Part shown: piece by piece, positions 4,516 to 60,789 of the stretch
Numbering within the stretch: position 1 is the stretch's first letter
How the letters are laid out: every line of letters starts with the position of its first letter
Assembly (NCBI GenBank): GCA_002708715.1
Contig: PAPB01000035.1
Location: 22,285-86,284, forward strand
DNA from: Fidelibacterota bacterium
GTDB taxonomy: Bacteria; Fidelibacterota; Marinisomatia; Marinisomatales; UBA1611
Length of the DNA: 64,000 nt
Direction of reading: 5' to 3'
Program-made: the position numbers and the translations under genes
Notes under the pieces: generated by a model
What the model was told of the DNA's origin: nothing
What the model saw: only the letters and a program-made list of their open reading frames with translations
Databases searched by the model: none

Positions 4516-4575
4516 TTATAAGTTAAAATTATTCTTCATATAAAACTATGTTAAGACCAAATAAGGAGCCTACTC

Positions 4576-7071: not shown

Positions 7072-7111
7072 TTGATAGGAGATTATCCTTGTTAAATATA
7101 TAGACATTAGG

Positions 7112-11196: not shown

Positions 11197-11200
11197 TTGA

Positions 11201-11854: not shown

Positions 11855-11996
11855 TTATTTTTCTAAACTATTTATAATTGACTTAATTAAACATCCCATC
11901 ATTCTATTGAAAAATATTATTTATTTACGATTAATGATATCTAATAATAATCCATAATTACTTATAAATTAGTGTCTTATATTTATTTAAAAATTA

Positions 11997-26610: not shown

Positions 26611-28457
26611 TCTAATTCTAAAATTAGGATACTTTTAGGTTTTAATTCAATTGACTCTGATAGGTTATAATTATTACCATTTATGATATCAATTCCTTTT
26701 CTTTTTTTCAATAAAATTTCATGATATAAATCAAATTCCAATATTTTTTTATTTTCTTGATTATTCATTATTACCATTACTTTTTCATTTTTATAGATTC
26801 TAAAATAAACGTAGATACCATGGGTTACAGGATAATGTATTAGCTTACCCTGAGTAATAGCATTATTTGATTTTCTCCAGTTTAGTAATGTTTTTATATA
26901 ATTTTTGGCCTCTAGTTGTATAGGATTTAGTCCAGAACCTATAAAGGCATTTATCTTATCGTTATCCCAACCTCCAGGAAAATCTTTACGGAGTTCACCA
27001 TGATCTTCAGTACTGGTCATAGCAATCTCAGTTCCATAATAAATTTGAGGTATTCCTCTGGTTGTGGCAATAAACGAAATTGCCATTTTAAATAGATCCA
27101 TTTTTTCATTTAATAAAGAATATACACGCTGCATATCATGGTTATCTGGAAAAATGACAAGATTATAAGGATCTCCGTATTGGAAATCACTTGCAAGAAT
27201 ACGGTAGATATCTCCTATCCCGCTATTCCAAGAATGTTTAGTTGTTAAACCTTGAATAAGAAATTTTTGAAGAGGAAAGTCTTTCATGCTTGGTATGTAA
27301 GATTGGAAATCATCATATGGTTTACTTCCTTTTTGCCAATAGGATACCATTGTTGGATCATTCAACCAGGCCTCGCCAAAAAAGTTGAAATCTGGAAATT
27401 CTTCAATAACTCTTTTACTCCACTTTGAAAGAAAATCTTTATCAATATATGGATAAGTATCAATCCTAAGACTAGACAATTCAGCATATTCAATCCACCA
27501 TATGGTGACTTGTTCTAGATAAGTAGCAACAAATGGATTTTTTTGGTTTAAATCAGGCATTGTTTGAACAAACCAGCCATCCGTGAACAAGTTTTTTTGA
27601 GATTGGGGTAAATGAGGATCATAAACTGTTTCGTGAATATGATTAGTTTGAACGTAATTATCTTGATAATTTAACCAGTCTATCGTTGGAAGATCATTCA
27701 TCCACCAATGCCCTGATCCGATATGATTTAAAACTAGATCTTTGATAAGGCCAATATCTCTTTTTTTTGCTTCTAATGATAATTTTTTATATAGTTTATT
27801 GGAACCATATCGAGCATCAATATTGTAGTAGTCAGTTGTGGAGTATCCATGATAAGAATAATTAGTTTGATTATTCTCTAGAACAGGATTGAGCCAAATT
27901 TGAGTAAATCCCATATCATTAATATAGTCAAGGTGATCTATAATCCCCTTTATGTCACCTCCATGTCTTCCATCTTTATTCATTCTATTTACTTTCTCAA
28001 ATAAGTGATCAATATTGTCATTACTTCTATCACCATTTGCATATCTGTCAGGTGTAATTAAATATATCACATCAGCACTATTCAAATTTTGTTTGTTATG
28101 ATATTCTTTTCTTTTTAGTAGTTCATAGTCATAGCTCAGAACCTTTTTTTTCTTATCATAAAAATTTATGGTAAATTGTTTTGGTTTATCCTTTTCTATA
28201 AATAAATCAATAAATAAATAATTAGGACTATCGGCAATGTGTATCTTTTTAATTTTTATACCTTTGTATGGGATTTTTGGTTGGAGCTTAGATATATTAT
28301 CACCATGTATCATTAATTGAAGGTTCTTATTCTCAAATCCTGACCACCAAAAAGGTGGTTCAATATGATCAATTTCGAATGATAACCCTTTTGATATCCC
28401 TGATATTAAAAGAATAGTAAGGTAGAACTCTTTTATATTGAAATATTTTTTTAGCAT
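26607..28457 (-). CDS. GH13 alpha-amylase / cyclomaltodextrinase-family enzyme, exported
   Basis: It has a signal peptide and an N-terminal cyclomaltodextrinase-N-like domain (PPFWWSGF). The GH13 regions are present: DRYANGD, GGDIKGI..LDY...GFTQIWLNP, DLVLNHIG, RIDTYPY, FGEAW and FPDNHDMQR. Confidence 0.9.
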   Translation of the reverse strand: MLKKYFNIKEFYLTILLISGISKGLSFEIDHIEPPFWWSGFENKNLQLMIHGDNISKLQPKIPYKGIKIKKIHIADSPNYLFIDLFIEKDKPKQFTINFYDKKKKVLSYDYELLKRKEYHNKQNLNSADVIYLITPDRYANGDRSNDNIDHLFEKVNRMNKDGRHGGDIKGIIDHLDYINDMGFTQIWLNPVLENNQTNYSYHGYSTTDYYNIDARYGSNKLYKKLSLEAKKRDIGLIKDLVLNHIGSGHWWMNDLPTIDWLNYQDNYVQTNHIHETVYDPHLPQSQKNLFTDGWFVQTMPDLNQKNPFVATYLEQVTIWWIEYAELSSLRIDTYPYIDKDFLSKWSKRVIEEFPDFNFFGEAWLNDPTMVSYWQKGSKPYDDFQSYIPSMKDFPLQKFLIQGLTTKHSWNSGIGDIYRILASDFQYGDPYNLVIFPDNHDMQRVYSLLNEKMDLFKMAISFIATTRGIPQIYYGTEIAMTSTEDHGELRKDFPGGWDNDKINAFIGSGLNPIQLEAKNYIKTLLNWRKSNNAITQGKLIHYPVTHGIYVYFRIYKNEKVMVIMNNQENKKILEFDLYHEILLKKRKGIDIINGNNYNLSESIELKPKSILILELE

Positions 28458-30413: not shown

Positions 30414-32831
30414 ATGTTGAAATATCTTCCCAAATATATAGTTTTAACTTCTATTATTTTGTTATTTATTGGCTGTTTAGAAATGGAAATTATAGATCAG
30501 CCTATGACTGCTCAAATAGCGTCTTCTTTTATAGCCACCACAGAAATTATTTTTACTCAAGATCCTGATGCCGATTATGATCGTAGGATGCTTTTTGGTA
30601 TCAATAAACCGACAGGCTGGATTATTAATAGTGTTACATATTTATCACCTGAGCATGGAGAAGGTATATTTGAATACCTTGGCAATGAACAAGATGAACC
30701 TGATTGTGTAGATTGTGGTATTGATACTGGATGGGAGAATGAGCTAGAAGGTTCATATCCATCTCCAACTGGTCTACATTGGCAAATGTTTGTTAGTGAT
30801 AAAGATACAATCTCCACATCTAATGAAGAAGATCCTGATACATTCCACGTGACTATTAATTATACAGTAGACTATGCAGAATCTTCTTATATGTTACGGT
30901 ATTTTACAGCCTTTACAGATCTTAATGATGCTGGAGATCAAGAAAAGAGTGCTCTTGATAGTGCCTCTATTGCAATATATAATCCTGCATCAACAACAGT
31001 TGCGACTCTAACCATTACTGATCATTCATGGTTAAATGAAAATATTAAGATGAAAGGATCAATGTCAGATTGGTTTCTTTTTGCTGCGAATGATGATGGT
31101 GTTGATGGAGATATTGAAGCAGGAGATCATGTTTGGACAGGTCAATATCCTATATTTGATGATGGTGTATATGAATGGGGAGCTATAGAAGATGATGGAT
31201 CGGAGTATGGTATCTGGCTTATTGATGGTCCTAATCCACAGTTTGTTGTTGAGGGTAGTACCATTACTGGTGTTACAGATTATATTATACCTCCAGACAG
31301 TGCTGTTTATCCTGGAGCAGTAAAATTTACAGTAACTGATGGTACTCAAGAATATGTTGCAATCGAATGGAAAGGTACACCCACTGATTGGAATACGGTT
31401 CCAATGTATGATGATGGTTCAACCAGTGGTGATGAAGTAGCAGGAGATCATATTTGGACAGTGATTATTGATAATATTGTACCTGGAGATCATGAATGGG
31501 GAGCAATTGAGAATGATGGTACAGATAACGGTATCTGGCTAATAGATGGGGCATGGGAAAACCCTTCATTTAATTTAGAGTCAGATATGTTTACCTTGCA
31601 TGGTCAGACTGATTACGTGATTCCTGAACCAGGAGGAGAAGATATCACAAAAACAGTACTCTTTTCTGTTGATATGACAGAGTGGTTGGATGAAGCAGGT
31701 AATTTAGGTATGAGCATATTTAGTATAGGTCGCAGTGATTCGGTACAGGTAAGAGGTAGTTTTAATAATTGGGGTAATTGTACAGAATGTACCATGACTC
31801 GTACGCCTGGTACGAATATATTCAGTCATGCTATTAATGTTACAGCTCAACCAAATAGCGAACATGAGTGGGCATATTATCTTCATCTTAGTCAAGCATC
31901 GCTTGATTCAATTGCAACACGATTTGATGTGCAACCTGTTGATTGGATTGGTTGGGAGACATCACCACAGAATGCAGGGAATCGTAATTTTAATTTAGGT
32001 GAGGATGATGGAACAAATTTATTAGAGCTCCCTATCCATTCTTTTTATGATGTTTTTCCTGGTGCTGTTTTAGAACAAGGTAATTCAATGGATGTTACAT
32101 TTAGTATTGATATGTCTGATGCCACCTCAATGGGATTTAATGCAATTGAAGACTCTGTATTTTTAAGAACAGGGGATAAGTGGTTAAATCTTACACAAGG
32201 ATATTCAGATGGCGCAGATGTTAATTTTTATGGTGCAGTAAATAATAATGATGGAACGTATTCACTTGATTTAACATTTCATGGCCCTCTTCCTTGGAGT
32301 ATCTATTATAAGTGGGGTTTTAAGGATGTTTCTTTTGGTACTGAAATACAAGAAGAAGGTGGTGGTTTAGGTGGTGCACCTAGAATACGCTATTTTCATA
32401 GAAATATAGATGATAATTGTAATTGGCCTTCATCATTTGCATTTCCTTTAGACGAAACTTTCTCTCCTGATCCTACATTTCAAGAACCATGGGATTCTTC
32501 AGCTATATGTATGGAATTAATGGATATTGAAAAAGATCTTCCATTACCACAGCGATTCTATGTGAGTAATAATTATCCAAATCCATTCAATCCAACAACA
32601 CAAATTAAATTTTCTATGCCGATGGAATCAGATATGAGTTTAAAAATATATTCCATTGCTGGAGCCGAGGTTTACTCCTATACAAAGAAATCTCTACAGG
32701 CAGGGACATATTTGGTGGATTGGAATGGAAGGAATATGAATAATGCCCCTGTTGCGAGTGGTGTTTATTTTTATGAGTTTAGAGCAGGGAAAGAATTTCA
32801 TATTACCAAAAAAATGACCTTATTAAAATAG
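30414..32831 (+). CDS. Surface protein with lipobox, repeated beta-sandwich (putative carbohydrate-binding) modules and a T9SS C-terminal domain
   Basis: GGAGGA precedes the ATG. There is a lipobox (LFIGC). Two ~85-90-aa internal repeats are present, plus further V(R/K)GSFNNW-type modules. The C-terminus reads NYPNPFNPTTQIKF...GVYFYEF...MTLLK. Confidence 0.6.
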   Translation: MLKYLPKYIVLTSIILLFIGCLEMEIIDQPMTAQIASSFIATTEIIFTQDPDADYDRRMLFGINKPTGWIINSVTYLSPEHGEGIFEYLGNEQDEPDCVDCGIDTGWENELEGSYPSPTGLHWQMFVSDKDTISTSNEEDPDTFHVTINYTVDYAESSYMLRYFTAFTDLNDAGDQEKSALDSASIAIYNPASTTVATLTITDHSWLNENIKMKGSMSDWFLFAANDDGVDGDIEAGDHVWTGQYPIFDDGVYEWGAIEDDGSEYGIWLIDGPNPQFVVEGSTITGVTDYIIPPDSAVYPGAVKFTVTDGTQEYVAIEWKGTPTDWNTVPMYDDGSTSGDEVAGDHIWTVIIDNIVPGDHEWGAIENDGTDNGIWLIDGAWENPSFNLESDMFTLHGQTDYVIPEPGGEDITKTVLFSVDMTEWLDEAGNLGMSIFSIGRSDSVQVRGSFNNWGNCTECTMTRTPGTNIFSHAINVTAQPNSEHEWAYYLHLSQASLDSIATRFDVQPVDWIGWETSPQNAGNRNFNLGEDDGTNLLELPIHSFYDVFPGAVLEQGNSMDVTFSIDMSDATSMGFNAIEDSVFLRTGDKWLNLTQGYSDGADVNFYGAVNNNDGTYSLDLTFHGPLPWSIYYKWGFKDVSFGTEIQEEGGGLGGAPRIRYFHRNIDDNCNWPSSFAFPLDETFSPDPTFQEPWDSSAICMELMDIEKDLPLPQRFYVSNNYPNPFNPTTQIKFSMPMESDMSLKIYSIAGAEVYSYTKKSLQAGTYLVDWNGRNMNNAPVASGVYFYEFRAGKEFHITKKMTLLK
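31044..31631 (+). repeat. Two intragenic ~85-90-aa repeat modules (31044-31298 and 31362-31631)
   Basis: IKMKGSMSDW..DGD.EAGDHVWTGQ...GVYEWGAIEDDGSEYGIWLIDGPNPQF...TGVTDYIIP aligns with IEWKGTPTDW..SGDEVAGDHIWTVI...GDHEWGAIENDGTDNGIWLIDGAWENPSF...HGQTDYVIP. Confidence 0.7.
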
Positions 32832-32897: not shown

Positions 32898-34211
32898 ATG
32901 AATTTCTTTTTGAATAGTAGACTAAAAAATAGTTTGGACTTTTTCCAGGTGATTTTTTCTACAAGTTATTCAATAAAACTGATAATTATTTTTACTATTT
33001 TTTCCTGTGCCAATCCTGAAGATGAAGTTGTTGCAAAAATTAATGATATTAGCATTACTAAATCTTCTTTTGAAACAAAGTATAGTGATTTTTTAAAAGC
33101 CAATTATAAAAAAGACAACTTATTAAATAGATATGCATTCTTAAATGGTTTAATAGATAATATTTTAATATTGAATTTTGCGTCTAAAGAAAAAATTAAA
33201 GAAAGTTCAGAGTTTATTATAAAAAGAAATAAGATTTTTGATCAGTTAATGTTGAACTATTTTTTTGAAGAAGAAGTTAATCTAGCGTATGGTATTACGG
33301 ATTCTGAATTACGAAAATTTTCAGTTTGGAAAAATAATACATTCCACGTTCGGCATCTTTTTGCGAAAAATAAATATCAAATAGAAAACATGCATATGAG
33401 ATTGTTATCGGGAGATTCTTGGGAGGATATAGCGCAACAGACATTTAAAGATACAATACTAAAAAATAATGGTGGAGATCTAGGATGGGTAAGTTTAGGT
33501 GATCTAGATCCTATTTTTGAATTGACGGCTTTTACCTTAGAAAAAAAGCAAATTTCAGGTCCAATAAAAACAAAATCAGGGTATAGTATTATTCAGTTAC
33601 TTGACAAGGTTCCAAATGGTTTAATAACGGAGCAACATTATCAATTATCTAAAAATAAACTAAAAAATTTGGTGCAGTATTATAAACGTCAGTTAGGAAT
33701 ACAAGAATATATGATTGAAGCGGAAAAATCATTGAATATTAAATTCTCTGATGACGTTTTGCATAATTTCTATAATAATTATTTTTCATTAACAAAAACT
33801 AAAGAATTTGATGAGACTACAGTGCTTGTAAATGTTAATAAAGATGTTTGGGATATAAGAAAAACTAAAAAACAATTACAATCATTATCAGATATTCAAG
33901 AAAGTTCGATTATAACAAAAATTGATTTTAAGAATGCAATTAAAGGCCTTATATGTCGATCTCATTTTTTAGAAAAAGCCAAATTGAAAAATATTAATAA
34001 AGACAAATTATTTGAAAAAGAATTTCAAGAGTTAATAAATAAAGCACTCGTCAAAAATGTATTAGATATGGTTTATGGAAAACTCGAGCAAAATGATTCT
34101 GAGTATTTAGTGCGGAAAAAAGATAAATATCTAAATTTTCGAAATATTTTGGTAATGAATAATGTTGTATCTGTTGATAGTAGTGCATTAAAAAATCTTA
34201 TAATATCATGA
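32898..34211 (+). CDS. Parvulin-type peptidyl-prolyl isomerase (PpiC/SurA/PrsA-like), lipoprotein (module A)
   Basis: It has a lipobox (IFSC) and the parvulin core HVRHLF...GGDLGWVSLGDLDPIFELTAF.L...ISGPIKTKSGYSIIQL. It is flanked by SurA-like helical regions, and its stop overlaps the next ATG (ATGA). Confidence 0.7.
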   Translation: MNFFLNSRLKNSLDFFQVIFSTSYSIKLIIIFTIFSCANPEDEVVAKINDISITKSSFETKYSDFLKANYKKDNLLNRYAFLNGLIDNILILNFASKEKIKESSEFIIKRNKIFDQLMLNYFFEEEVNLAYGITDSELRKFSVWKNNTFHVRHLFAKNKYQIENMHMRLLSGDSWEDIAQQTFKDTILKNNGGDLGWVSLGDLDPIFELTAFTLEKKQISGPIKTKSGYSIIQLLDKVPNGLITEQHYQLSKNKLKNLVQYYKRQLGIQEYMIEAEKSLNIKFSDDVLHNFYNNYFSLTKTKEFDETTVLVNVNKDVWDIRKTKKQLQSLSDIQESSIITKIDFKNAIKGLICRSHFLEKAKLKNINKDKLFEKEFQELINKALVKNVLDMVYGKLEQNDSEYLVRKKDKYLNFRNILVMNNVVSVDSSALKNLIIS

Positions 34212-40100: not shown

Positions 40101-40844
40101 CTTTGTATGCGGTATCTACCAAATAGCTCAACATGTTTTCCTGGATTTTTACATCCAGCAAAGGAAGTCAATTTTAGAGTAGAGCGTCAGGTATCTTTAA
40201 CAGGTGAAGATGAAGTAGATTGGGAGCAGATACCGATTGGATTTATTGATGTAATACCTTTTGGTGATCCCGATGGATATTTTAATGCTGATGGAGATAG
40301 AGAAAGTGACTGGATAGTTTTTATGGATCATGAAGATGAAGAAGGGAACCCTATTCCTTCTTGGAGATTTTTATTAAATCTTCTCCCATATGATGAAATG
40401 TTAGTTTATGATGCACCTCAGCCAGGTGATACGGCCTATGTAATTATTGATAAACCATTTTTGAGTAGCGATGTTTATGAGTTTAATACAATTGCTTCTC
40501 ATATTAATGTTGAAGATGCAGTTACTGACCTTGATAAAATAAAAGTTGTTCCTAACCCATATTTTGCAGCTTCGGCATTCGAGAATCAAAATACATTTAA
40601 TACAGGAAGAGGCCCAAGAGAAATACAATTTCGTTATCTACCTAACGATTGTACAATTCGTATTTATACAATTTCTGGTGAATTAGTGAAAACTATTCAT
40701 CATTCATCTCCAATTGAATCAGGTACAGGAAGATGGGATTTATTGACAAAGGATAATTTGGCCGCTTCTTTTGGTGTATATGTTTATCATATAGAAGCGG
40801 ACAATATTGGGGAAAAAATTGGTAAGCTGGCAATTGTGAAATGA
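37134..40844 (+). CDS. Large secreted surface protein (module A): conserved N-domain, acidic DxDxDG Ca-binding-type repeats, FN3-like module, variant T9SS-like C-terminal domain
   Basis: The start is set at MLLFVTMPFVSLLDAQS (signal peptide). ADGIDN(D/N)GDG...SP(V/I)IT.EM repeats occur 3-4 times. DESRDDGIDNDGDW and FPGEPNIDKTDVSESDQ blocks are present. The FN3-like block is PPIVTALAGDGKVTLYWDN...FEGYKIYRATD. The C-terminus reads IKVVPNPYF...LPNDCTIRIYTISGELV...GVYVYHIEA...GKLAIVK. It is a paralogue of 52433..56401. Confidence 0.6.
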   Translation: MLLFVTMPFVSLLDAQSLERGDPNYRRETPIDVNKVRASIHNIGSSGGGGAYGFHYEWPTNSDRRYIAYQALYVGSEVVTNSGETKPLVTIAHRSDQEGNSMMWEPIPGYLNPNSTKIAISDNETTWPNTWPDKLGDNNDPGWAGSWNGYFGKNQFNAGQEIFYKISDDRNYIVGYPYSPDTTDLTRKGAGIQVGVRAMEWKQILIEDVVFLLHEVTNDGSYDYEKVAFGYWLANCVGGNGDCNDDVIDFDLLTDIAWSLDNDGIGGSAFGTDPVGVGATSFIETPGNDKDRIDNDGDGETMGPVITEDMIINEILGNSIDDNFNGLVDENLSHVPVANQSGVGFADYIDNNGNGEAASPIITQEMIDAASSQNWNIWPHPNDGFQEGVIHLIQLDETDLGAGFADGIDNNADPEDPYLLEYPVGLGADVGSPVITAEMVSIASNDAWHRYKVPGTNIILYDLGSEDIGKSYADGIDNDGDGAIDEGIDEGIDEMIDESRDDGIDNDGDWTFIDDVGLNGDESGGIIAGVGDQKPTTGSGTGFPGEPNIDKTDVSESDQMGLTSVQKNDGGFNTASDNSLWTFYLSPGNIWDPPPGGDEPGSVDMQISSGFFPLKAGQTERIAMAIMMGNDQQDAIRNKYVAQLTYESDYQFAKAPNPPIVTALAGDGKVTLYWDNKAELTQDKYMGRITNGVDLYDFEGYKIYRATDFEFNDAYNITDGDGNRTFMEPYVQNGVPARWDLVNGKNGWHPIDLNGVKFYLGDDTGLVHSYVDNNVVNGQRYYYAVVSYDYGGDATNNIIPSDSPMRLRVHPLTGEIEMGPNVVGVVPSPPSAGYVEASLVENNISHVAGSSSGEINLEIIDPSVIKNNHRYRITFEDTLFANQQGLAGYDTATTKSYSLIDITNQDNHDTLLKDIESLPIVDGPVIDGFRLSFYNVGSLGFNQNFSYWSNDSLWTFDVGRYFTFNVVGSMLPYDYRIIFTEEQSDSSIDLCMRYLPNSSTCFPGFLHPAKEVNFRVERQVSLTGEDEVDWEQIPIGFIDVIPFGDPDGYFNADGDRESDWIVFMDHEDEEGNPIPSWRFLLNLLPYDEMLVYDAPQPGDTAYVIIDKPFLSSDVYEFNTIASHINVEDAVTDLDKIKVVPNPYFAASAFENQNTFNTGRGPREIQFRYLPNDCTIRIYTISGELVKTIHHSSPIESGTGRWDLLTKDNLAASFGVYVYHIEADNIGEKIGKLAIVK
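38583..38630 (+). repeat. 4 x 12-bp in-frame tandem repeat (ATTGATGAAGGT x2, then two degenerate copies)
   Basis: Read directly from the sequence; it encodes IDEG-IDEG-IDEM-IDES. Confidence 0.8.
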
Positions 40845-41851
40845 GAAACTATACAATAATTAAATATTCTATTTTTCTTTTTATGCTTTCTCAATTATTA
40901 TCCGTAGACAAAGCGGGTACGACATCAGCTAAATTTTTATCAATAGGAGCTGGTTCTGCTGCTGTTAGTATGGGAGGTGCATTTACTTCTATTGCGAATG
41001 ATGCTACTGCAATGTATTGGAATCCTGCAGGTATAAGTTTTTATAATATGAGAGAGGTTTATTTTAACCATTCTAACTGGATTGCAGATATCTCTCATGA
41101 TTATTTTGGTTTAACTATACCACTTAATTCTAAAAACACTATTGGGTTTAATTTGATTTCTGTGACAATGGATGATATGGAGGTTACACGCTATGGTAAT
41201 GAAGATACTGGAGAGACATTTAAAGCGGCAGATTATGCACTCGGAGTATCTTATGCTGTGAACTTTACAGACCGTTTTTCTATTGGTTTTAATGGCAAAT
41301 ATATACAGCAAATGATAGCGAGTAGTTATGCAAGAGGATTAGCTCTTGATATAGGGACTTTATTTGATACCCCTTTCGGATTTCGTTTAGGTACGAGTAT
41401 CAGCAACTTTGGACCAAAGTTAAAAATGACTGGCGATGATTTATTGGTTGCTGCTGATGTTGATCAAACGATTGAAGGTAATAATGAAAGTGTAATCAGT
41501 GTGTTGTCTACAGACTATTTTGATTTACCATTAGTATTACGTTTTGGTATTTCAGATAATGTTAAAGTTGGAAAATTGTTAAAAATGTTATGGTCGGTAG
41601 ACGCTGTAAGTCCTAATGATAATACAAATTATATAAATATAGGATTGGAGTTTAGTTTTCTCAATGACCTTCTACGCTTGAGATCAGGAATTAATTCTTT
41701 ATTTTTAAGTGATAATGAAAAAGAATTTTCACTAGGTCTTGGATTAAAAATCCCAAGCATTGGTAAGAATAATATTTTGATGAATTATTCCTATGAGTCT
41801 ATGAAATTTTTGGGAGTTACGCAGCAGATAGGCATATCCTTTGCATATTAA
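40841..41851 (+). CDS. PorV/PorQ-family-like outer-membrane beta-barrel (module A)
   Basis: It has a signal peptide followed by GTTSAKFLSIGAGSAAVSMGGAFTSIANDATAMYWNPAGI, the hallmark PorV-type N-terminal motif (FL.I....RA.GMGGA....DA.A.YWNPAG). An alternating beta-strand pattern follows. It is 336 aa, and the ATG overlaps the upstream stop (ATGA). Confidence 0.7.
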   Translation: MRNYTIIKYSIFLFMLSQLLSVDKAGTTSAKFLSIGAGSAAVSMGGAFTSIANDATAMYWNPAGISFYNMREVYFNHSNWIADISHDYFGLTIPLNSKNTIGFNLISVTMDDMEVTRYGNEDTGETFKAADYALGVSYAVNFTDRFSIGFNGKYIQQMIASSYARGLALDIGTLFDTPFGFRLGTSISNFGPKLKMTGDDLLVAADVDQTIEGNNESVISVLSTDYFDLPLVLRFGISDNVKVGKLLKMLWSVDAVSPNDNTNYINIGLEFSFLNDLLRLRSGINSLFLSDNEKEFSLGLGLKIPSIGKNNILMNYSYESMKFLGVTQQIGISFAY

Positions 41852-43189: not shown

Positions 43190-43200
43190 ATTTTAATTTT

Positions 43201-44907: not shown

Positions 44908-45022
44908 TTTGAGCAAAAGAATAATGTGAAAATTGTATTTATTTTTCTTGTAAAATACATAACCAATCTCAATTGTATCCTGTTTTTAAAAAATATTCAA
45001 GTTATATAAAATTGTAAATATA

Positions 45023-46098: not shown

Positions 46099-47415
46099 TT
46101 AGTTAGCTTTTAATTTAGATTTAAATAGTTTTTCTAAGTTCTTATCATACACTACAATTTTATATTGAGCTTTTAGTTTTTTTGTAATTTCCATAATATC
46201 TTTTTCAGAAAAGTTTTTTTGTTTTTTATCTTTTGAAAGGGAGAGCAGGAATTCTCTTGCGAGATATTGATCTTCTTTAGATTGTATTTTCCATTGTACT
46301 TTTTTATTATTTTGTAATCCACGATTTAAAGCTTCAGTTGTTAAAAGTTTATTTCTTAGAGCAATATAAAATGCTTGAACGGGATTGTCTAAAAATGATT
46401 TAGGACTAGAATTTCTTAAATTATTTAAAAGATCATTAATGGTAAATGATCCATTTTTGAATGTTGCAAGTGTAGTATTAGCATTCAATTTTAAATCGAT
46501 AATAAACTCAGTTAATTTTTCGCTAATCTTTGGTTTGAGATCATATTCATTTTTATTTTTTTGAAATACAATTGTATGAATCTTATGAAGTGTATTCATC
46601 ACAAGTGTGTCATCAATTGTTATATCATTATCCATGAGATTATTCACATAATCATTTGCCATTATTTGAGTCTGTTTTTTTATAATAGTATTGATTAAGC
46701 CGTGCTTGGTATTTTGATAATCGTTTTCACTAATGATCATTTGTCTTCTTTCATCCTTTTTTAAAAGGATGTGCCACCCGTAGCTGGATCGAATGGGTCC
46801 CACAGCTTTATTTATAGGCATGGAAAAAGCAGTTTGCTCTAAATTTGGATCTAATGTATTATAACTGATCCAGCCTAAATCACCACCAGAATCTTTTAGG
46901 TTTTTATCTTTAAATAACTTTTTTGCATAGACATCAAACATAATTGGATTTTTTAATATTAAGGGCAATAGCGTGTCTAAGACCTCTTTATCCTGGTGAA
47001 AGATATGCTTTAGTGAAATTTCTGTGTTTTTCCATGTGAAATGTTTCCTTGCAATACTATCTTCTATGGCAACACCTTTAGACCCTATAATGTGATTATA
47101 GAGTTCCTCACGTAGTGCTAATTCTTTTGATAGTTTGACTCTATTCAATCCTATAGAATCAAGTGAAAGGTTTTTTGATCTTGCTGCTTCTGCGAATAGT
47201 TTGGTTCGTATTAATTCGTTTAGGGTTCTGCTACGTTCAAAGTCAGAATCTTGTGCTGCCGTATTAATTAATTTATTTGAATATGACTCAATGAAATCAT
47301 CTGCTGTGACTTCACTTGTACCTACCACTGCCAGGATTTCAGGATCAACATTATTTTCACAAGTATGGAAAAATGTACTGTATATGATTAATAAGATTAA
47401 ATGAGTTTTATTCAT
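46099..47415 (-). CDS. Parvulin-type peptidyl-prolyl isomerase (PpiC/SurA-like) (module B), paralogue of 32898..34211
   Basis: It has the parvulin core SLKHIF...GGDLGWISYNTLDPNLEQTAFSMPINKAVGPIRSSYGWHILLK. It is 438 aa versus 437 aa for the paralogue. Confidence 0.7.
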   Translation of the reverse strand: MNKTHLILLIIYSTFFHTCENNVDPEILAVVGTSEVTADDFIESYSNKLINTAAQDSDFERSRTLNELIRTKLFAEAARSKNLSLDSIGLNRVKLSKELALREELYNHIIGSKGVAIEDSIARKHFTWKNTEISLKHIFHQDKEVLDTLLPLILKNPIMFDVYAKKLFKDKNLKDSGGDLGWISYNTLDPNLEQTAFSMPINKAVGPIRSSYGWHILLKKDERRQMIISENDYQNTKHGLINTIIKKQTQIMANDYVNNLMDNDITIDDTLVMNTLHKIHTIVFQKNKNEYDLKPKISEKLTEFIIDLKLNANTTLATFKNGSFTINDLLNNLRNSSPKSFLDNPVQAFYIALRNKLLTTEALNRGLQNNKKVQWKIQSKEDQYLAREFLLSLSKDKKQKNFSEKDIMEITKKLKAQYKIVVYDKNLEKLFKSKLKAN

Positions 47416-47494: not shown

Positions 47495-50400
47495 CTATTT
47501 CATTAATAGCATTTTTCCTGTTAAGATTCGATTATCTGAAGTAACCCTATATAGGTATAATCCAGAAGGAACTTTCTGACCATAAGTATTATTAGCATTC
47601 CACTGTATCGCATGTCTTCCTGCATGTAATTCACCATTCTGAAGTGTAATGATTTCATTACCCAAAATGTTGTATACAGTTACGTTTACCTTTGAGGTAT
47701 AATCTAAATCAAAGCGTAAAGTTGTTACAGGATTAAATGGATTAGGATAATTGCCTAATAATACGAATTCCTTTGGTGTGACAATATCCTCTTCTTCAGC
47801 AGATAGCACATCTGTAGAAATCATCATACCAATATTATCAAAATAGACAGCACCAGCATCAGCCTCTGGACCCTGCCATAATTCACAACCAGCATTAACA
47901 TTTACAGCTCCATCAGGAACCATACCTGAGACCATAACATGGTGCCACATATCAGTTGTCGAAGATGCATCAATTACTTCTGATGTGTATTTAGCTAATT
48001 GACTCCATCCAGCATCAAAGAATTCAACAAACAAATATCCATTATTATTACCTGTTACGGCATCACCAGCGGGTGTCATCATGTGGCCTTGCATATGGAC
48101 ATAGTTACCAGGTTCAAGGCCTAAACCATCAACACTGAAACCTTGATATACTGGTGTCCACTCAGGATTATCGTTAGAGTCATCAGTCCTGGGTGTTATT
48201 TGAAGACTGTGCATCCCTTCAAATGGATACATGTCATTGGCTTCCCAGTTTTCTAACTCTGGTGGCCAACTTCCCCAACCAAATGCGCCTTCTTCAAAAC
48301 CGCCATTTGTTAAGTATCCACCAGGACCTGCCCATGGATTTGCAGGGTTGTTATCACCAAATACTGTTTGCAACAGTACAGTTCCACTTGCGTCAGTATT
48401 CATATAGAATACTTTATCAATACCATAACCTGCTTCATTATCCATCGCGCCATTGTCTCCACCTTCATTTTCAATTCCAGGATAGTAGGCACCTAATTTA
48501 TAGGTGAACACATTACCATGGCCCGCAGGCAACATTAATGATCCAGTGAATACACCATCTCCATCTGAGTCAGTGAGTCTTGGTACATCAGGAGAACATG
48601 GTGTTGCACAATCAGGACCCATACAGTCACCCCAGGTACACCAACAATTCAAGAAAGAACCATTCATGATGAGTGTGTCAGGATGCTCTACAAAATATTC
48701 ACCAGTATTAACATTCTGAGTATTCATCATCCACATTGCGTGAATCTCAACTGTTACATCATTTAGAAGCTCTCCAATTGGAAGAATTACTGGCTCTGCT
48801 GGATCAAGAATGAGATCTTCACCCGTAAATTCAAACACTCTATTTGCCGCAGTCTCCCAACCACCATTGTTGAAGTTCTCATCTGGGTTTGCCTTAAACT
48901 TCCACTCATGCATACTACCTGGAGCAGCCATGATTGTTTTAGTAAAGGTGTAGAGGTTTGGATCGGTTAGATCTTCCTGGAATACATCTCCAGCTCCCCA
49001 ACCGTTTATTCCACCTCTTAGCTCCATGAAGTGTGTATTAGCATCCCATCCTTGAGATAATAAAGTCGTCATATCTGCCTGGAAGGTTACATTAGCCTCA
49101 ACAGGGTCTCCGCCACATGTGTAACATGAGCTGAAACAGAATGGAGGAGTCATGGTGTCTTCTTCTCCAACTGATATAACACGATCACCCCAATCTCCAG
49201 CACCACATCCTTCTGCGGTTAGGTTTCCACCATCTTCATATCCAGCATCATTACCACCATTATTGAATTTGTAGTAGTGTTCACCTTCTGGAAGAGGTAC
49301 CTTGATCATGTAGATACTTTCTTCACCTTCGACTAAAGTCATTGGATGAAAATTTGGCCAGAAAACACCACCACCAAGAAAAACACCATCTGGTGAAATT
49401 GTCTCTACTTCTTCCATATCTACATGGAAAACAACATAAGACTCATCACATGACAGACACTCTCCAAAACAAGCTGGAGGTAGTACTGTATTTTCATCAG
49501 GTACTACTAGCCATCTATCACTACCAAATCCACCTGCTCCACCACAGACAGGGTCTGTTACACTTTCATCATTTCCCCATGCATTACCATTAATAAATTT
49601 ATAGTAAAGAGTATCACCCGCTTCTGCTTCAATATCAACAGAAAAAATACCATCCATATCGGGATCATGTAGCTCAGTTGCACCTGGATCCCATCCTTGG
49701 AAACTTCCAGCGACGTGCACGCCATCATCAGAGACATCATGGTTTCTCATGTCTAGGTTAAGGGTAATAACGCGAGGTAGGAAGGGGTTTGCTGGATTAT
49801 TATCTCCAAATACAGTTTCCAATGTCACAGTTCCGCTTGCGTCTGTTGGAATGTAATATACTTTATCTGCGCCGAAGCCCGCTTCGTTATCCATAGATCC
49901 ATTTTCACCAGGTACATCTTCAACACCCGGATAATATGCACCGAGTTTGTAGGTGAATACATTACCATGTCCAGCAGGTAAACTTAGTGAACCAACATAG
50001 ACTCCATCACCATCTGGATCAGTAAGACGCGGGACATCTGGAGAAACAGATTCTGCGCAACTTGATCCCATACAGTTACCCCATGTACACCAGCAATTTA
50101 AGAACGATCCGTTCATAACTAATGTATCAGGAGTTACAGGAAAGGGCTCGTTGTTATTAGCATTGAGAGTACCTTCCACCCACGTTGCATGAATCTCAAC
50201 GTCTACAGCATTAGCAAGTGGTCCAATAGGAAGGATAGCAGGTGTCTCAGGAGCAAGAACTATATCTTCTCCCCAGAAATAGAATATTCTATTAGCAGCT
50301 GTTTCCCAACCATTATTATTAAAATTAGCATCAGGGTTAGCTTTAAACTTCCACTCTTGTACTGAACCGGGCTGTGCTGTGATTTCTTTTGTAAAGGTAT

Positions 50401-51295
50401 AGAGGTTTGGATCTGTGAGATCTTCTTGGAAGACATCTCCAGCAGCCCAACCATTCATTCCACCTCTAAGTTCCATGAAATGTGTATTGACGTCCCAACC
50501 TTGTGATAGTAGAACACTCATATCAGCCTGGAAAGTAACACTAGCTGTTAGAGGCTCACCGCCACAAGCATAGCAGGAAGCAAAACAAGGAACTGGATCA
50601 AACATCATGTCATCTGCTGAAACAGTTACAGCTCGATTAACAAATTCACTACCTTGTGTTGTACAAAAATCTTCTTGAAGCTCTTCCCAGTTGTCGCCAT
50701 TTATCACAAACTTATACTCGTGTACGCTCTCTTCAGGAAATGCTTTAGAAAGTTTATAGATACCATCACCAGCATCCTCCATCCAATCAACTGACGCATC
50801 CCAAGCATTAAATGTTCCTGCTAGTCTCACGTCTGTTACATCAAACCCAGCAACATTTACCGCAAAATGAACGTAAGATTCGTCACAGCCAATACATTCA
50901 CTAAAACACACTGGATCAAGAACAGTATCTGCATCAGGAACCGCTAGCCATCTATCATTTCCAAAACCACCAGCACCACCACATAGTGGATCCTCAACGC
51001 CTTCATCATTTCCCCATGCGTTTCCATTAATGTATTTAAAATAGACTGTGTCTTCTGCCACGCCAGACATGTCAACAACAACGGTGTAGACACCATCTCC
51101 ATCTTCATCAGTCAATGCTGTAGCAGCTGGATCCCAGCCCTGAAAGCTACCCGCAACGTGTACCCCATCTTCTGAAACAGTTACATCAGACATATCTACA
51201 TTCAATGTAACGTTAACAGCAAAAAGAGAAGAGGTTAGTGCTACGATCATAGCCAAGGAAAAAACCTTTAATCGATTTATCATAGATTGCTCCAT
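47495..51295 (-). CDS. 1266-aa surface protein with a duplicated ~480-aa block of four beta-sandwich (CBM-like) modules, a CBM4/9-like domain and a T9SS C-terminal domain
   Basis: It has a signal peptide. Module signatures include DGVHVAGSFQGWDP, VRLAGTFNAWD, MELRGGMNGWAAGD and MNGSFLNCWCTWG. There is an NGGFEEGAFGW block. The C-terminus reads NYPNPFNPVTTLRF...GLYLYRV...MLLMK. Confidence 0.6.
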   Translation of the reverse strand: MEQSMINRLKVFSLAMIVALTSSLFAVNVTLNVDMSDVTVSEDGVHVAGSFQGWDPAATALTDEDGDGVYTVVVDMSGVAEDTVYFKYINGNAWGNDEGVEDPLCGGAGGFGNDRWLAVPDADTVLDPVCFSECIGCDESYVHFAVNVAGFDVTDVRLAGTFNAWDASVDWMEDAGDGIYKLSKAFPEESVHEYKFVINGDNWEELQEDFCTTQGSEFVNRAVTVSADDMMFDPVPCFASCYACGGEPLTASVTFQADMSVLLSQGWDVNTHFMELRGGMNGWAAGDVFQEDLTDPNLYTFTKEITAQPGSVQEWKFKANPDANFNNNGWETAANRIFYFWGEDIVLAPETPAILPIGPLANAVDVEIHATWVEGTLNANNNEPFPVTPDTLVMNGSFLNCWCTWGNCMGSSCAESVSPDVPRLTDPDGDGVYVGSLSLPAGHGNVFTYKLGAYYPGVEDVPGENGSMDNEAGFGADKVYYIPTDASGTVTLETVFGDNNPANPFLPRVITLNLDMRNHDVSDDGVHVAGSFQGWDPGATELHDPDMDGIFSVDIEAEAGDTLYYKFINGNAWGNDESVTDPVCGGAGGFGSDRWLVVPDENTVLPPACFGECLSCDESYVVFHVDMEEVETISPDGVFLGGGVFWPNFHPMTLVEGEESIYMIKVPLPEGEHYYKFNNGGNDAGYEDGGNLTAEGCGAGDWGDRVISVGEEDTMTPPFCFSSCYTCGGDPVEANVTFQADMTTLLSQGWDANTHFMELRGGINGWGAGDVFQEDLTDPNLYTFTKTIMAAPGSMHEWKFKANPDENFNNGGWETAANRVFEFTGEDLILDPAEPVILPIGELLNDVTVEIHAMWMMNTQNVNTGEYFVEHPDTLIMNGSFLNCWCTWGDCMGPDCATPCSPDVPRLTDSDGDGVFTGSLMLPAGHGNVFTYKLGAYYPGIENEGGDNGAMDNEAGYGIDKVFYMNTDASGTVLLQTVFGDNNPANPWAGPGGYLTNGGFEEGAFGWGSWPPELENWEANDMYPFEGMHSLQITPRTDDSNDNPEWTPVYQGFSVDGLGLEPGNYVHMQGHMMTPAGDAVTGNNNGYLFVEFFDAGWSQLAKYTSEVIDASSTTDMWHHVMVSGMVPDGAVNVNAGCELWQGPEADAGAVYFDNIGMMISTDVLSAEEEDIVTPKEFVLLGNYPNPFNPVTTLRFDLDYTSKVNVTVYNILGNEIITLQNGELHAGRHAIQWNANNTYGQKVPSGLYLYRVTSDNRILTGKMLLMK
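48335..51217 (-). repeat. Intragenic tandem duplication: unit 1 = 51217-49775 (aa 27-507), unit 2 = 49774-48335 (aa 508-987)
   Basis: The units align end to end, for example VNVTLNVDMSDVTVSEDGVHVAGSFQGWDPAAT... with VITLNLDMRNHDVSDDGVHVAGSFQGWDPGAT.... Both end in TVFGDNNPANP. Similarity is also visible at nucleotide level. Confidence 0.85.
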
Positions 51296-51325
51296 TTTTA
51301 CTTTATTTACGTTTAAATATTTTAG

Positions 51326-51343
51326 TAACTCTAGATAGAGACA
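51326..51343. promoter_or_regulatory. Imperfect copy (TAACTCTA-GA-TAGAGACA) of the palindrome found at 59850-59867; candidate shared operator
   Basis: It lies 31 nt upstream of the ATG of the 1266-aa gene. The surrounding ~35 nt (TTAGTAACTCTA..TAGAG..ATTAATT.TAGG) are shared with the 59.85 kb region. Confidence 0.45.
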
Positions 51344-51425
51344 CTATTAATTATAGGTAGTAAAACCAGTTTAACATACTAATTTAGTTATAATGGCCTT
51401 AATTCTACAAAAGAATTTTAGTAGG

Positions 51426-52436
51426 TTATAATGATGTTGTAAGTGTGATTTTTTTGGGATTGCCTAGCGGACCCATATCTACATAGGTATAATCAATATG
51501 ATAGTACGTATTAGATATTTTTAATTTTATTCCACATCCAATAGATACACCAGAGATGCTATCTCGTTGATACAGATTTGCTAACCCTGAACGCAAGAAC
51601 AAGAAATCTTTAAATGTTAATTCAGAGCCTAGATTAATACTCTCTGTATTATCATTGGGATGCAGGGCATCTACGGCAAATAAGATACTTAGATTATTGG
51701 GTAAGCTTTTTTTATAGGCTAATCCAAAGCGGAATATAAGTGGAAGTTCAAAACGATCTGTTGCAAAATTAGCATTAATATTAATTGGATCAGACTCAAG
51801 GCTGGGGTCTACCTCAGTTTGTAAAAGTAAATCGCGTCCTTCCATCTGCATCTTTGTACCGTAGTTTGATATACTCATTCCCATAGTAAGTCCAGGAATT
51901 TGCGTATCGTATAAGGTACCAAGGTCAAGTGCCAAACCATTGGCCTTAGAGTTGTAGATACTTTCTCGAATAATCTTAGTTGATATTCCAAAAGAAAATC
52001 TATCTGTGAGAGACCTTGAAAATGTTAGCTGACCCATAATAGAACCAGCATTAAATTTTTCACCTGTACCTTCAGGGGAATGGGTTGTTGTCACTTCCAT
52101 TTCACCCATATACATTGCGCTAATGGCTGCACCTATAGTTCCAAAAGGAGTGTTATAAGATCCGCCAATAAAATCTAGATCTACATCTAATATCCAATCT
52201 TGGTGATCTAGTATGATTTCATTTTTTTTAATGGATGCTAATCCAGCAGGATTCCAATAGAGAGCAGTCGCATCATTAGATACGGCGGAGTAAGCTCCAC
52301 CCATACCAAGAGCCCTTGCTCCGATTCCAATTTTTAAAAATTGGGCTGCAGTGGTTCCTGTTTTAGAAACAGTTTGTGTAAAAGATATAGATAAAAACAG
52401 AGCTAAGATTGGTATCGTTTGTATAAAATATTTCAT
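51426..52436 (-). CDS. PorV/PorQ-family-like outer-membrane beta-barrel (module B), paralogue of 40841..41851
   Basis: It has GTTAAQFLKIGIGARALGMGGAYSAVSNDATALYWNPAGLA and is also exactly 336 aa. The ATG overlaps the upstream stop by 4 nt. Confidence 0.7.
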   Translation of the reverse strand: MKYFIQTIPILALFLSISFTQTVSKTGTTAAQFLKIGIGARALGMGGAYSAVSNDATALYWNPAGLASIKKNEIILDHQDWILDVDLDFIGGSYNTPFGTIGAAISAMYMGEMEVTTTHSPEGTGEKFNAGSIMGQLTFSRSLTDRFSFGISTKIIRESIYNSKANGLALDLGTLYDTQIPGLTMGMSISNYGTKMQMEGRDLLLQTEVDPSLESDPININANFATDRFELPLIFRFGLAYKKSLPNNLSILFAVDALHPNDNTESINLGSELTFKDFLFLRSGLANLYQRDSISGVSIGCGIKLKISNTYYHIDYTYVDMGPLGNPKKITLTTSL

Positions 52437-55400
52437 TTTATGACTGCAAATTTTCCTAAATGAGGTTTAAAATCATATAAACCTTCATCCATAGGCTCAA
52501 CATGATAAAAATATACTCCGTAGGCGATATCTAGATTATCTTTAGTTAGCATATCCCATTCGTAAGATCCATCATCAAAGTCGGTATTATGAATTAAGGT
52601 ATTGACAAGTTCTCCAGAGAGAGTAAATACTTGGATTTTACACTGTGGAGGAAGGTGATTAAAATGAATAGAGCGTGGTCCTCTGCCATCTGCATATGGA
52701 TTTTGTCCTTCCCAACTTGCAGCTACAATATAAGGATTGGGTACAACTTTAATATTATTAGTTGAATAATTTAATAATCCTGGATCAAATGAAGCTCCTT
52801 TTGAAATAAACTCATACACATCTGCACTTGAAAAGGGTTTAGTGGTGTACAAAGATAACGTATCGCCAGTAGTTGGTATATGTTGCTCCGGTATGTTATC
52901 GTGGCCAGGTGTTACATTCCATGTAACAAACGAAGTGTCTCCTACATGCTCCAATAGTATAATTCGGTCAGAATAAGAAAAGTGACCTGGTTTTGCTAAT
53001 TCAAGTTTTAGTGCATAGTCTGTGCCAAAAAGAGATACCGCAAATCCAAAATCTGACCATGTTCCTGCGACAGTATCTATAATGTTATAGTATCCAAATT
53101 GATCTTCTCTTAGATAAAACTCACTGTTGATTATTGAATCAATAGGTACCGAATCTGGAAGACCAGCAGCCTTGCTGTAGTATATCCAGGTCCTATCAAT
53201 TATCGCTAGATCAATGCTTATCTCTTCATTATCTAAATCAATTACCTTAAAATTTGCCATTGAGGAATCAATGGTAATGGTTTGACCATTCTCGCGTAAT
53301 AGATCAATAGAAGCTGTTGAGTATATTGCAGAGTCTGAGAACACTAATCCATAATTTCTTGGATAGGCGACGCCCTGAGTTGCGATACCTCCGAAACTGA
53401 AGGGGCTGAAAGTATAAGCATAATCAGATTCTGATTCTGGGTAAAAATGAGATAGGTCACTATCGGTCTGAATTGATGTTTGATTATTTATTTCTAAAAT
53501 CATTCCATTAAATTGACCTAGGTCACTATCGAGATCAGTGCTCCATGGTACCACAGTATCCAATTGAGTATTGTTTGATATATTTACCACCATAAAATCA
53601 GTGGTGTGTGGTATTGCTTCGTCTAGATCATAAATATCTAAATTTGGTTCTCCAGTATCGGCTACCCCATTATTTTCTGTCATCTCACCATAGTCAAATT
53701 CTCCATTATTTTCTGTTCCAAATGGATTGTTATTGTATTCATAATCATCATTGTTAGGATCAGGGTTTTGGGTTGGGTCGAATCCAAATTCCTGTTCATT
53801 GCACAACCCATCTGAGCCGCAATCATTCCAGTTATCTTGATTCTCATCATTTGCAACGGGATTGGCAAAATCATTACATCCTCCGAGGCCATTTTCATAG
53901 TAGTCAGAGCATCCATCAATACCAACATCATGGGAATCGGCAGACCAATCACCATCATCATCAATCATATTCATGCGTGTATCTTTAAAATAGATTTGAT
54001 AGATATTATTATCTGGAATTTTTGAAGGATCAATATTGCGTATTTTCATTGTTCCAGTACCTACTGGTGTAGTTACTGGATAGACATCTTTTTCCTTTGG
54101 TGCTGCAACATAGCCAATAGAGGGAGCATCAGGGACTGCGGTTATAACATTTTTTGCGGTAATAACTTTTCCACCTCGATTCATGGTTACAAATTTCGAT
54201 GTTTCAGCTGGAAGAATTTCTTTTTCAATTGACCCATGATCGTAGGCTGTTACCGCATAAAAATATCTATGTCCATTGATTACATTTGTATCGGTCCAAG
54301 AATGTACTAGTCCAGAATTGTTACCAAGATAAAATTGAATTCCATCTACATGACCTGGGTAAAAATCTTCAAATTCATTGATCTTATCATATTGTTTAAT
54401 AGGAATATTAAATTTTGCGGTACCAAATGCATCAGTTATAACACCAGCATCTGTGAATTGAGTGTCAGTCGCTTTATAAATTTTATATCCTTCAAAATCA
54501 TCACCAGTTATTCTATCTACAGATTGCTCTGCATTATCGTCCCAATATAGTGTAACATATCCATCTCCAGAGTATGCCCAGACGCTTGGTAGGTCTGGTG
54601 CTTTTGCAAAATTATAGTTCTGGTTATATATAGTTTGGACAGTTTGTTTATTTCTAACCAAATCAGGGAGATTATCACCAAATAATAATGCGATTGAGAA
54701 TCGCTCTGTGAGATCTTTTTTCAATGGGAAATATCCAGAGCTGAATAAGAAATCAGCATCGGTGTTTGATATAGAATTATTAAAATAACCTGGTAGCATC
54801 TCTTCCCATAGCCTTGGATCGTCATCCATTTGTGGTCCTACACCAAAATTAAAATAATAAAAACTGGATAGTCCTATCTGGTCTGATTCATCTACATCTG
54901 TTTTATCAATATTTGGTTCACCAGGTAATTCTGTACCCATTCCTGAGGTAGGAAGGCCGTCTCCTTCTCCGAGATCTCCGCTTCCTGGCATCCCGTCTAT
55001 GCCCACATCATCTGTAGCAATATCCCAGTCACCATCATTATCAATGCCATCTTCTCTGCTTTCGTCAATGAGAGTGTTGGTGGATCCGATCCCGCTAAAA
55101 TAATCTATATATTTTAGGCCTTCTCCTGATAGAGCATCAAAATATAGATATGTATCTTCAAAAATACCTGGCGCGATTTCTATGGATGCACCATTATTTT
55201 CATCGATCAAACCATTTAGGTTGTCATCGATAAGATTTCTTGGTATCTCTTCTAGTATATCTCCTGGCATAAACACATGCTCGCTATTCGATTTTTGAAT
55301 TATAATACCGCTTGATGGCATAGCAACTAAGGTTCTTTCATAGGTCTGGTAGTCGATTACGACTATAGTATCGCCAGTGCTATAAGATCGACTAGAGAAC

Positions 55401-60755: not shown

Positions 60756-60789
60756 TGATTTATGGCGAATGTTTTAATATAGATATGTT

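Follow-up and report, generated by a model that had tools for sequence, protein, structure and literature searches.

The stretch of DNA analysed here (64,000 nucleotides of contig PAPB01000035.1 from a Fidelibacterota bacterium, assembly GCA_002708715.1; hereafter the window) has a low G+C content of ~31% and carries two paralogous gene cassettes, A on the forward and B on the reverse strand (Table 1). In each of them a TonB-dependent receptor (TBDR) is followed by a very large protein, here called the giant, that ends in an apparent variant of the C-terminal domain (CTD) of type IX secretion system (T9SS) substrates, and then by a barrel of the PorV/PorQ family. Both cassettes also include a SurA-like parvulin peptidyl-prolyl isomerase (PPIase) and a protein with a canonical T9SS tail. 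A sequence-only reading of the window had proposed that the variant tail is matched to its own PorV paralogue, and this pair and the operon around it are considered below. The giants are 35% identical over ~900 amino acids and 39% identical (E 1e-34) over their C-terminal ~185, while the barrels, both of 336 amino acids, are 41% identical. The true start of giant A is probably 12-20 codons 3' of the start of its open reading frame (ORF). Both TBDRs score above the cut-offs of PF07715 and PF00593 (Plug and barrel), which identifies them as TonB-dependent receptors. The 4-nucleotide overlap of PPIase stop and TBDR start in cassette A points to tight coupling throughout the operon, and in both cassettes the stop of the giant gene overlaps the ATG of the barrel gene (gtgaaATGAgaaac, 40841-40844, in A; ataaaATGAaatat, 52436-52433, in B).

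Table 1. The two cassettes and their flanking genes in the window. CBM, carbohydrate-binding module; GH, glycoside hydrolase; HMM, hidden Markov model.
Feature	Position	Strand	Basis
GH13 cyclomaltodextrinase, flanks cassette A	26607..28457	-	Pfam
Cassette A cargo with CBM53-like modules, SusE/F-like, canonical type-A CTD	30414..32831	+	Pfam Por_Secre_tail, FlgD_ig, CBM53
SurA-like parvulin PPIase, cassette A	32898..34211	+	Pfam Rotamase, SurA_N_3
TonB-dependent receptor A, 970 amino acids	34208..37120	+	Pfam CarboxypepD_reg, Plug, barrel
Giant protein A, 1256 amino acids	37074..40844	+	ORF; no Pfam match; all-beta multi-domain AlphaFold model
Variant C-terminal tail A, residues 1156-1256	40539..40844	+	Alignments, hhalign, AlphaFold model
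PNPY..E..N..GRGPR insertion of tail A, between strands 1 and 2	40551..40619	+	Invariant residues, model confidence
PorV/PorQ-family barrel A, 336 amino acids	40841..41851	+	NF033709, 177 bits
Parvulin PPIase, cassette B	46099..47415	-	Pfam
Cassette B cargo, canonical type-A CTD and CBM48 / AMPK1_CBM / X25 modules	47495..51295	-	Pfam and NCBIfam scans
PorV/PorQ-family barrel B, 336 amino acids	51426..52436	-	NF033709, 192 bits; ATGA overlap with giant gene
Variant tail B	52433..52753	-	157 bits with tail HMM
Giant protein B, 1322 amino acids	52433..56401	-	ORF and homology to giant A
TonB-dependent receptor B, 1141 amino acids	56402..59827	-	Pfam CarboxypepD_reg, Plug, barrel
TrmB sugar regulator, GH77 4-alpha-glucanotransferase and alpha-glucan phosphorylase, flank cassette B	59958..63938	+	Pfam

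The tail comprises ~105 residues and is conserved in both giants, with 47% identity between them; the consensus that the sequence-only reading had given for it agrees with the alignments. In an AlphaFold (AF2) monomer model of giant A (residues 57-1256; predicted local distance difference test, pLDDT, 75; predicted template modelling score, pTM, 0.60), seven strands lie at the extreme C-terminus (model residues 1101-1198 of 1200) with pLDDT values of 63-92 outside one insertion loop, and this matches the seven-stranded sandwich described for T9SS CTDs (PMC10994853). In the model the tail adjoins a conserved helix and not a flexible linker. The tail differs from canonical ones by an insertion of ~20 residues between strands 1 and 2, in which P1160, N1161, P1162, Y1163, E1170, R1179, G1180 and R1182 are invariant together with an asparagine. 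The pLDDT of the insertion falls below 50 in the monomer model, as expected of a segment that would be ordered only upon binding of a partner.

Profiles built from 23 tails and from 21 canonical tails of the same loci align over 79 columns (hhalign; 95% probability, E 3e-8). The window giants have no match to PF18962 and reach 18-19 bits (E ~1e-5) with a local HMM of canonical tails. The sequence-only reading had also listed canonical type-A tails on four other window ORFs, and all four, namely both cassette cargo genes, a GH18 protein (1842-3194) and an FG-GAP/ASPIC protein (28600-30333), exceed the PF18962 gathering score and reach 49-112 bits with the local HMM. With TIGR04183, 21 of the 23 tails match at E<=1, scoring 13-16 bits among the matches listed, all below the cut-off of 23, which is passed by the canonical tails from the same loci (21/21). 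The two classes are clearly separated and no intermediates occur: giants have a median score of 181 bits with the tail HMM and do not exceed 26 bits with the canonical HMM, and canonical cargo has a median of 109 bits with the canonical HMM and does not exceed 31 bits with the tail HMM. The type-B CTD model TIGR04131 matches one of the 23 tails, at E 0.13, so that the tail is not of type B by this model. By these profile comparisons the tail is shown to be a divergent, type-A-like T9SS CTD that is homologous to type-A CTDs and forms a separate, discrete subclass. The chance that it is an ordinary TIGR04183/FlgD-Ig tail which happens to lie next to a PorV-like gene is negligible: weak sub-threshold matches to TIGR04183, CHU_C and FlgD_ig speak for it, but the tails stay below a cut-off that neighbouring cargo tails pass, the class separation is bimodal, and the linkage described below holds at 80 of 80 loci across phyla. 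An ordinary tail lacking such linkage, which the sequence-only reading had named as the outcome that would count against it, is not what was found, and we consider this explanation refuted.

Scanning one genome per species gave at least 587 matches to the tail, and a library of 1.8 billion proteins yielded 330 tail representatives at E<=1e-30, numbers that chance comes nowhere near explaining. Roughly 3,000 further representatives fall between E 1e-30 and 1e-10. In all of the 150 best representatives the tail lies at the extreme C-terminus, and nearly all of them also match the preceding giant-specific segment; as far as these matches indicate, the tail is not modular and is confined to one family of ~1,200-amino-acid proteins. 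It occurs in Marinimicrobia/Fidelibacterota, Ignavibacteria (including the cultured Melioribacter and Rosettibacter), Calditrichota (including Caldithrix abyssi), KSB1 and Stahlbacteria, as well as in metagenome-assembled genomes (MAGs) labelled Bacteroidota or Cytophagia. Against the PDB, the tail profile gives spurious sums of WD40 repeats and the CTD of PorU at E 0.15. Two further thoughts on the tail were given up: that its nearest relatives are the CTDs which PorU and PorZ retain was rejected, as canonical cargo tails match these NCBIfam C-termini equally well or better, and its conservation above the rest of the giant was judged a weak sign of a special partner, as canonical CTDs likewise exceed the bodies of their cargo proteins.

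The barrels were assigned with the family model NF033709, which has a cut-off of 90 bits and gives them 176.7 and 192, and with Pfam PorV (42.6 and 30.5 bits against 27), in agreement with the earlier claim of a PorV-like gene after each giant. Scores with the equivalog models stay far below their cut-offs (PorV NF033710, 65-67 bits against 250; PorQ NF033711, 79-90 against 220; PorV2 NF052325, 84-101 against 325). Judged from these profiles, the barrel belongs to the PorV/PorQ family without being orthologous to PorV, PorQ or PorV2. Its PorQ scores exceed its PorV scores, and its length is PorQ-like. Its sole relative among solved structures is PorV of Flavobacterium johnsoniae (6h3i_F, E 2e-7). 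Barrel B also matches Toluene_X/FadL and BamG, though weakly (28 bits with BamG, where the cut-off is 250). The barrel matches in the NCBIfam scan include no PorP/SprF model. Exact-sequence searches with barrel A and with the first ORF of the window returned no record.

Linkage was analysed in the 80 best loci out of the at least 587 tail matches; these loci come from no fewer than five phylum-level lineages. All 80 have a gene content that fits a barrel adjoining the giant, and the linkage of giant and barrel within the operon is thus universal among the loci examined; the co-occurrence of the variant tail with adjacent PorV-like genes, for which the sequence-only reading had suggested a tail HMM as the means of testing, is borne out in them. 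Most often the genes run PPIase, TBDR, giant, barrel (46 complete, others running into contig ends), with the TBDR conserved 5' of the giant wherever the contig extends that far and a PPIase homologue directly 5' of the TBDR in 49 loci. Three or four KSB1/Ignavibacteriales loci (L063, L064, L068 and also L062) have the order TBDR, barrel, giant, PPIase, and one contig (L070) carries two cassettes in tandem. The median gap from giant to barrel is 18 nucleotides and the ATGA overlap is found at 10 of 77 junctions. The translational coupling that had been claimed therefore holds at both window loci and is not conserved beyond close relatives, indicating that coupling is local or lineage-specific and that operon membership is the conserved feature. 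Of the claim that the variant CTD has a PorV paralogue of its own, the linkage, the distinct CTD subclass and the position of the barrel below the PorV, PorQ and PorV2 equivalogs stand; the tail as a signal used across cargoes does not, being found in one family only. In the literature on PorV2, PorV-like paralogues and T9SS with SusC in Ignavibacteria, Marinimicrobia or Calditrichota no description of the operon was found, and both the operon and the giant family appear to be undescribed so far. In both PPIases of the window acidic residues come after a lipobox cysteine (C-ANPEDE in cassette A, C-ENNVDPE in cassette B), a feature that resembles the surface-lipoprotein signal of Bacteroidota and is inconsistent among the homologues at other loci.

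For the giants themselves no Pfam model is significant, and giant A is 100% identical to a 'hypothetical protein' at NCBI from a Candidatus Marinimicrobia MAG, the annotation that is borne by all family copies with a source name. In the 80 best loci every tail belongs to a giant homologue of 1,060-1,380 amino acids or to a fragment of one caused by contig ends or frameshifts, and the family is abundant in Tara Oceans assemblies of Marinimicrobia. Searches of the PDB sequences with the giant sequence and with a giant profile found nothing. The alignment, the AF2 model and Foldseek describe the giant as all-beta and multi-domain, with FN3/Ig-like domains and predicted calcium-binding repeats of the DxDxDG type, and Foldseek with the whole model against the PDB returned generic FN3/Ig strings only, with PorZ at rank 6, and gave no pointer to function. 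The conserved N-terminal domain resembles the galactose-mutarotase-like supersandwich of GH94, GH116, GH149 and dextran dextrinase (weakly, best E 0.011); its likeness in the model to carbohydrate-binding supersandwich domains is suggestive only. A SusD/RagB (TPR-like helical) domain, which might be looked for in the gene after the TBDR, has no Pfam or NCBIfam match in the giant. Residues ~300-530 of giant A (window 37980-38660) consist of three ~70-residue repeats (DNxGxG ... SP(V/I)IT.EM(I/V)) and, after them, an acidic (GIDE)n stretch, are modelled with low confidence and are the most variable region between the paralogues and across phyla. TBDR B contains an insertion that is absent from TBDR A (window 58800-59050, residues ~270-340) with repeats of the DxNGDG/DxNxNG type (DINGDGNWDYGE, DLNNNGTWDEGE, DRNGNQSWDGDEG), which resemble the calcium-binding repeats of the giants.

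The porU gene adjoins porV, and the adjacency of giant and barrel recalls this arrangement. Together with the matches of the tails to the C-termini of the PorU and PorZ models, it could mean that the pair is the housekeeping T9SS attachment module of the lineage, equivalent to PorU-PorV or PorZ-PorQ. However, the alignments to these models span the CTD only (the last ~70-110 residues, 12-25 bits against full-length cut-offs of 420 and 260), and canonical cargo tails match the same regions. The giants give no C25 peptidase or beta-propeller signal in Pfam, NCBIfam or the AF2 model, the window holds two paralogous copies, each amid sugar-utilisation genes with a TBDR, and tandem copies occur on some contigs such as L070. 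We consider a housekeeping role highly improbable.

The surroundings of the cassettes concern alpha-glucans. A gene for a canonical-tailed protein directly follows the barrel in nearly all loci; in cassette A it lies before the PPIase instead, and residues 400-700 and the CTD of its product are homologous to the post-barrel gene in more than 50 loci. A Pfam domain scan of 48 post-barrel cargo genes found Por_Secre_tail in all 48, CBM20 in 32, AMPK1_CBM in 23, CBM48 in 16, CBM53 in 11, X25 in 8 and SusF_SusE in 3. Within 10 kb, a GH13 homologue is present at 33 of the 80 loci and a TrmB regulator at 9 of 80, and genes for GH77 and glucan phosphorylase are, along with GH13 and TrmB, frequent neighbours of the cassette. 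Beyond the window, the source contig goes on to encode an SSF symporter, a 906-amino-acid GH13 protein with a T9SS tail, a CBM48-GH13 protein and another GH13 protein; the protein at the end of the window and neighbouring cassette B genes are also found on Tara Oceans scaffolds. This gene content is that of a starch utilisation locus, and the position of the PPIase-TBDR-giant-barrel operon inside alpha-glucan loci points to nutrient uptake. In addition, a beta-lactamase-fold protein, a GH43 beta-xylosidase with a GH43_C2 domain and a protein of the FGE-sulfatase family are encoded 3' of cassette A (41876-46072), and a GH43 homologue follows the cassette in five related loci as well.

The interpretation that we favour, and to which we give an even chance, is that the cassette encodes a Sus-like machine for alpha-glucan uptake in which a giant exported by the T9SS is held on a dedicated PorV/PorQ-like barrel beside the transporter. 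The SusC-like TBDR would be the import channel for alpha-glucans (starch, glycogen or maltodextrin), and the ~1,200-amino-acid, all-beta, putatively calcium-binding giant would take the gene position of SusD beside SusC. Export of the giant would proceed via Sec and then the T9SS by means of the divergent type-A-like CTD, which would be neither cleaved nor transferred to lipopolysaccharide (LPS) and would stay docked on the co-encoded barrel of predicted 14 strands, as PorU does on PorV and PorZ on PorQ, keeping the giant at the surface beside the transporter. The PNPY..GRGPR insertion is the likely determinant by which the dedicated barrel would be selected over the housekeeping PorV, the SurA-like PPIase may chaperone the components, and the neighbouring canonical-tailed proteins with multiple CBM20/48/53 modules may act like SusE/F. 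We infer T9SS dependence, retention of the tail, contact of tail and barrel, association with the TBDR and the nature of the substrate from these data taken together. It has been proposed explicitly in a review that cognate PorV-like barrels shield CTDs from cleavage (PMC10202324, PMC10994853).

The same pairing might serve transport alone, the barrel replacing PorV at the SprA translocon for the giant, whose tail would then be cleaved by PorU, the giant being released or attached to LPS as ordinary type-A cargo is. Type-A cargo is indeed shuttled by PorV (PMC10994853), the tail has cleavable type-A CTDs among its homologues, and a strict one-to-one linkage suits a carrier as much as an anchor. 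We nevertheless think such a dedicated shuttle unlikely. A transient carrier does not obviously need a copy number equal to that of each paralogous cargo, and the known dedicated carriers, SprF for SprB and PorQ for PorZ, stay bound as anchors (PMC10202324, PMC10994853). Moreover, by its scores the barrel is closer to PorQ than to PorV, and a conserved helix and no flexible linker abuts the tail.

Distance matrices of the barrel and the TBDR correlate most strongly (0.89), and the tail is far more conserved than the barrel (mean distance 0.36 versus 0.52), which is unexpected for a simple co-evolving pair. Both observations would suit a barrel whose partner is the TBDR and not the tail, acting as a FadL-like channel or as a structural or assembly partner like BamG, while the housekeeping PorV handles the divergent CTD. 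FadL/PorV-like barrels can be platforms without any CTD, as exemplified by BamG (PMC12578637), and the weak Toluene_X/FadL and BamG matches of barrel B are in line with this. However, the PorV/PorQ assignment lies well above its cut-off and the BamG and FadL scores far below theirs, a discrete tail subclass with an invariant insertion calls for a distinct receptor, and the barrel adjoins the giant even where the gene order is permuted, so that we regard a TBDR-directed barrel as rather improbable.

Several points weigh against the anchored uptake machine. In the mirror-tree analysis the partial correlation of tail and barrel (0.415) does not exceed that of tail and TBDR (0.418), and the analysis gives no specific sign of tail-barrel co-evolution beyond shared phylogeny. 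Contact between tail and barrel and retention of the tail are predictions of the model; the likeness of the tail to the PorU and PorZ CTDs is unspecific, as canonical CTDs of the same loci match equally well or better. No T9SS core genes were found within the 64-kb window, and the presence of a T9SS is read only from the four proteins with canonical CTDs and from the reported distribution of the system throughout the Fibrobacteres-Chlorobi-Bacteroidetes (FCB) group (PMC11205867). For the N-terminal domain the fold match is weak, with nothing at E<=0.001, so that a carbohydrate-binding role of the giant is only putative. GH26 or GH10 occurs in some of the downstream cargoes, and the substrate may vary by locus. 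Finally, Melioribacter roseus also has a classical SusCDE operon (PMC3534657), and the cassette is not a simple substitute for SusD in every lineage.

The closest known counterparts are PorU-PorV and PorZ-PorQ of Porphyromonas gingivalis, which likewise combine a protein bearing a T9SS-type CTD with a FadL-like barrel of the PorV/PorQ family, and in which a CTD that is kept on the protein anchors it at the surface (PMC10202324). Unlike these, the giant lacks C25 peptidase and propeller domains, the giant-barrel pair is multicopy and accompanied by a TBDR and a PPIase in operons for sugar utilisation, the barrel stays below the PorV and PorQ equivalog cut-offs, and retention of the tail is here our reading. 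A CTD subclass matched to a co-encoded dedicated barrel is also found in the type-B CTDs with PorP/SprF, as in SprB-SprF of Flavobacterium johnsoniae, where the PorP/SprF barrels carry and then anchor the type-B cargo (PMC10994853, PMC10202324); here, by contrast, the tail is type-A-like and the barrel belongs to the PorV/PorQ family. With such cognate barrels established (PorU-PorV, PorZ-PorQ, type-B CTDs with PorP/SprF; PMC10202324, PMC10994853), the layer of substrate sorting suggested earlier is not new in kind. A CTD subclass with its own barrel is known in principle, and its use in a glycan uptake machine centred on a TBDR appears to be undescribed. In the BAM complex (beta-barrel assembly machinery) of Bacteroidota, BamG is a related barrel that serves as a surface platform for BamH (PMC12578637), but BamH is a lipoprotein held via its N-terminus and has no CTD, and barrel B falls far short of the BamG model.

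The Sus system of Bacteroides thetaiotaomicron (SusC/D/E/F/G) is similar in that a TBDR is followed by the gene for a surface partner and then by multi-CBM starch-binding surface proteins, and in that GH13 enzymes (one of them surface-targeted) and a sugar regulator are encoded at the same locus. It differs in that the partner here is no SusD-like lipoprotein but an all-beta protein of ~1,200 amino acids with a T9SS-type tail, in that the binding proteins and the amylase bear T9SS tails and not lipid anchors, and in that the PorV-like barrel and the PPIase are integral. The TBDRs are distant from SusC/RagA as well, since TBDR B reaches 60 bits with TIGR04056 against a cut-off of 368, over the N-terminal 200 residues only, and TBDR A has no match. 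More broadly, in FCB lineages outside the Bacteroidia the T9SS, and not lipoprotein export, may supply the glycan TBDR with its large surface partner, the giant being the functional counterpart of SusD or of surface glycan-binding proteins and anchored 'CTD-in-barrel' to a dedicated PorV/PorQ-like protein; we put this forward tentatively, as possible but doubtful.

The giant family is widespread, given its matches in species-level genomes, and has no Pfam domain. If the proposed machine exists, it would explain SusD-less polysaccharide capture by abundant marine and sediment heterotrophs (SAR406/Marinimicrobia, Ignavibacteria, Calditrichota), and the principle of a cognate barrel that protects a CTD and anchors it, applied so far to gliding adhesins and the housekeeping parts of the T9SS, would reach into nutrient uptake. 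Next to lipid anchors and LPS linkage, this would be a third route to a Sus-like machine, and perhaps the more ancient one. The natural pairing of tail and barrel, with two paralogous pairs in one genome, offers a system for how CTD subclasses are distinguished, and cultured carriers are available in Melioribacter, Rosettibacter and Caldithrix abyssi.

A few further observations concern the rest of the window. The G+C content is raised to 0.37-0.43 across 47500-56000, i.e., the CBM48 cargo gene and cassette B, compared with ~0.31 elsewhere, which could reflect an amino-acid composition rich in G, D and A or a different history. Positions 1-12827 hold a cluster for peptidoglycan and muropeptide recycling, which comprises a GH3-like/beta-lactamase-domain protein (4-1848), the GH18 protein with a T9SS tail, a NamZ exo-muramidase (3196-4515, reverse strand), an SSF symporter, an NlpC/P60 protein, a fusion of an M15 dipeptidase with a Gate domain, an LD-carboxypeptidase of family S66, an S13 DD-carboxypeptidase and an AmiA-like amidase. 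It is followed by an ORF of 775 amino acids (12840-15167) without a Pfam match at E<=0.001. LexA (19758-20378), a Y-family polymerase (20390-21562) and a DnaE-type Pol III alpha subunit (21553-24573) resemble an SOS mutagenesis cassette, and the ORF at 18206-19489 fuses a PAS domain to a prenyltransferase of the UbiA family, which is an unusual combination.

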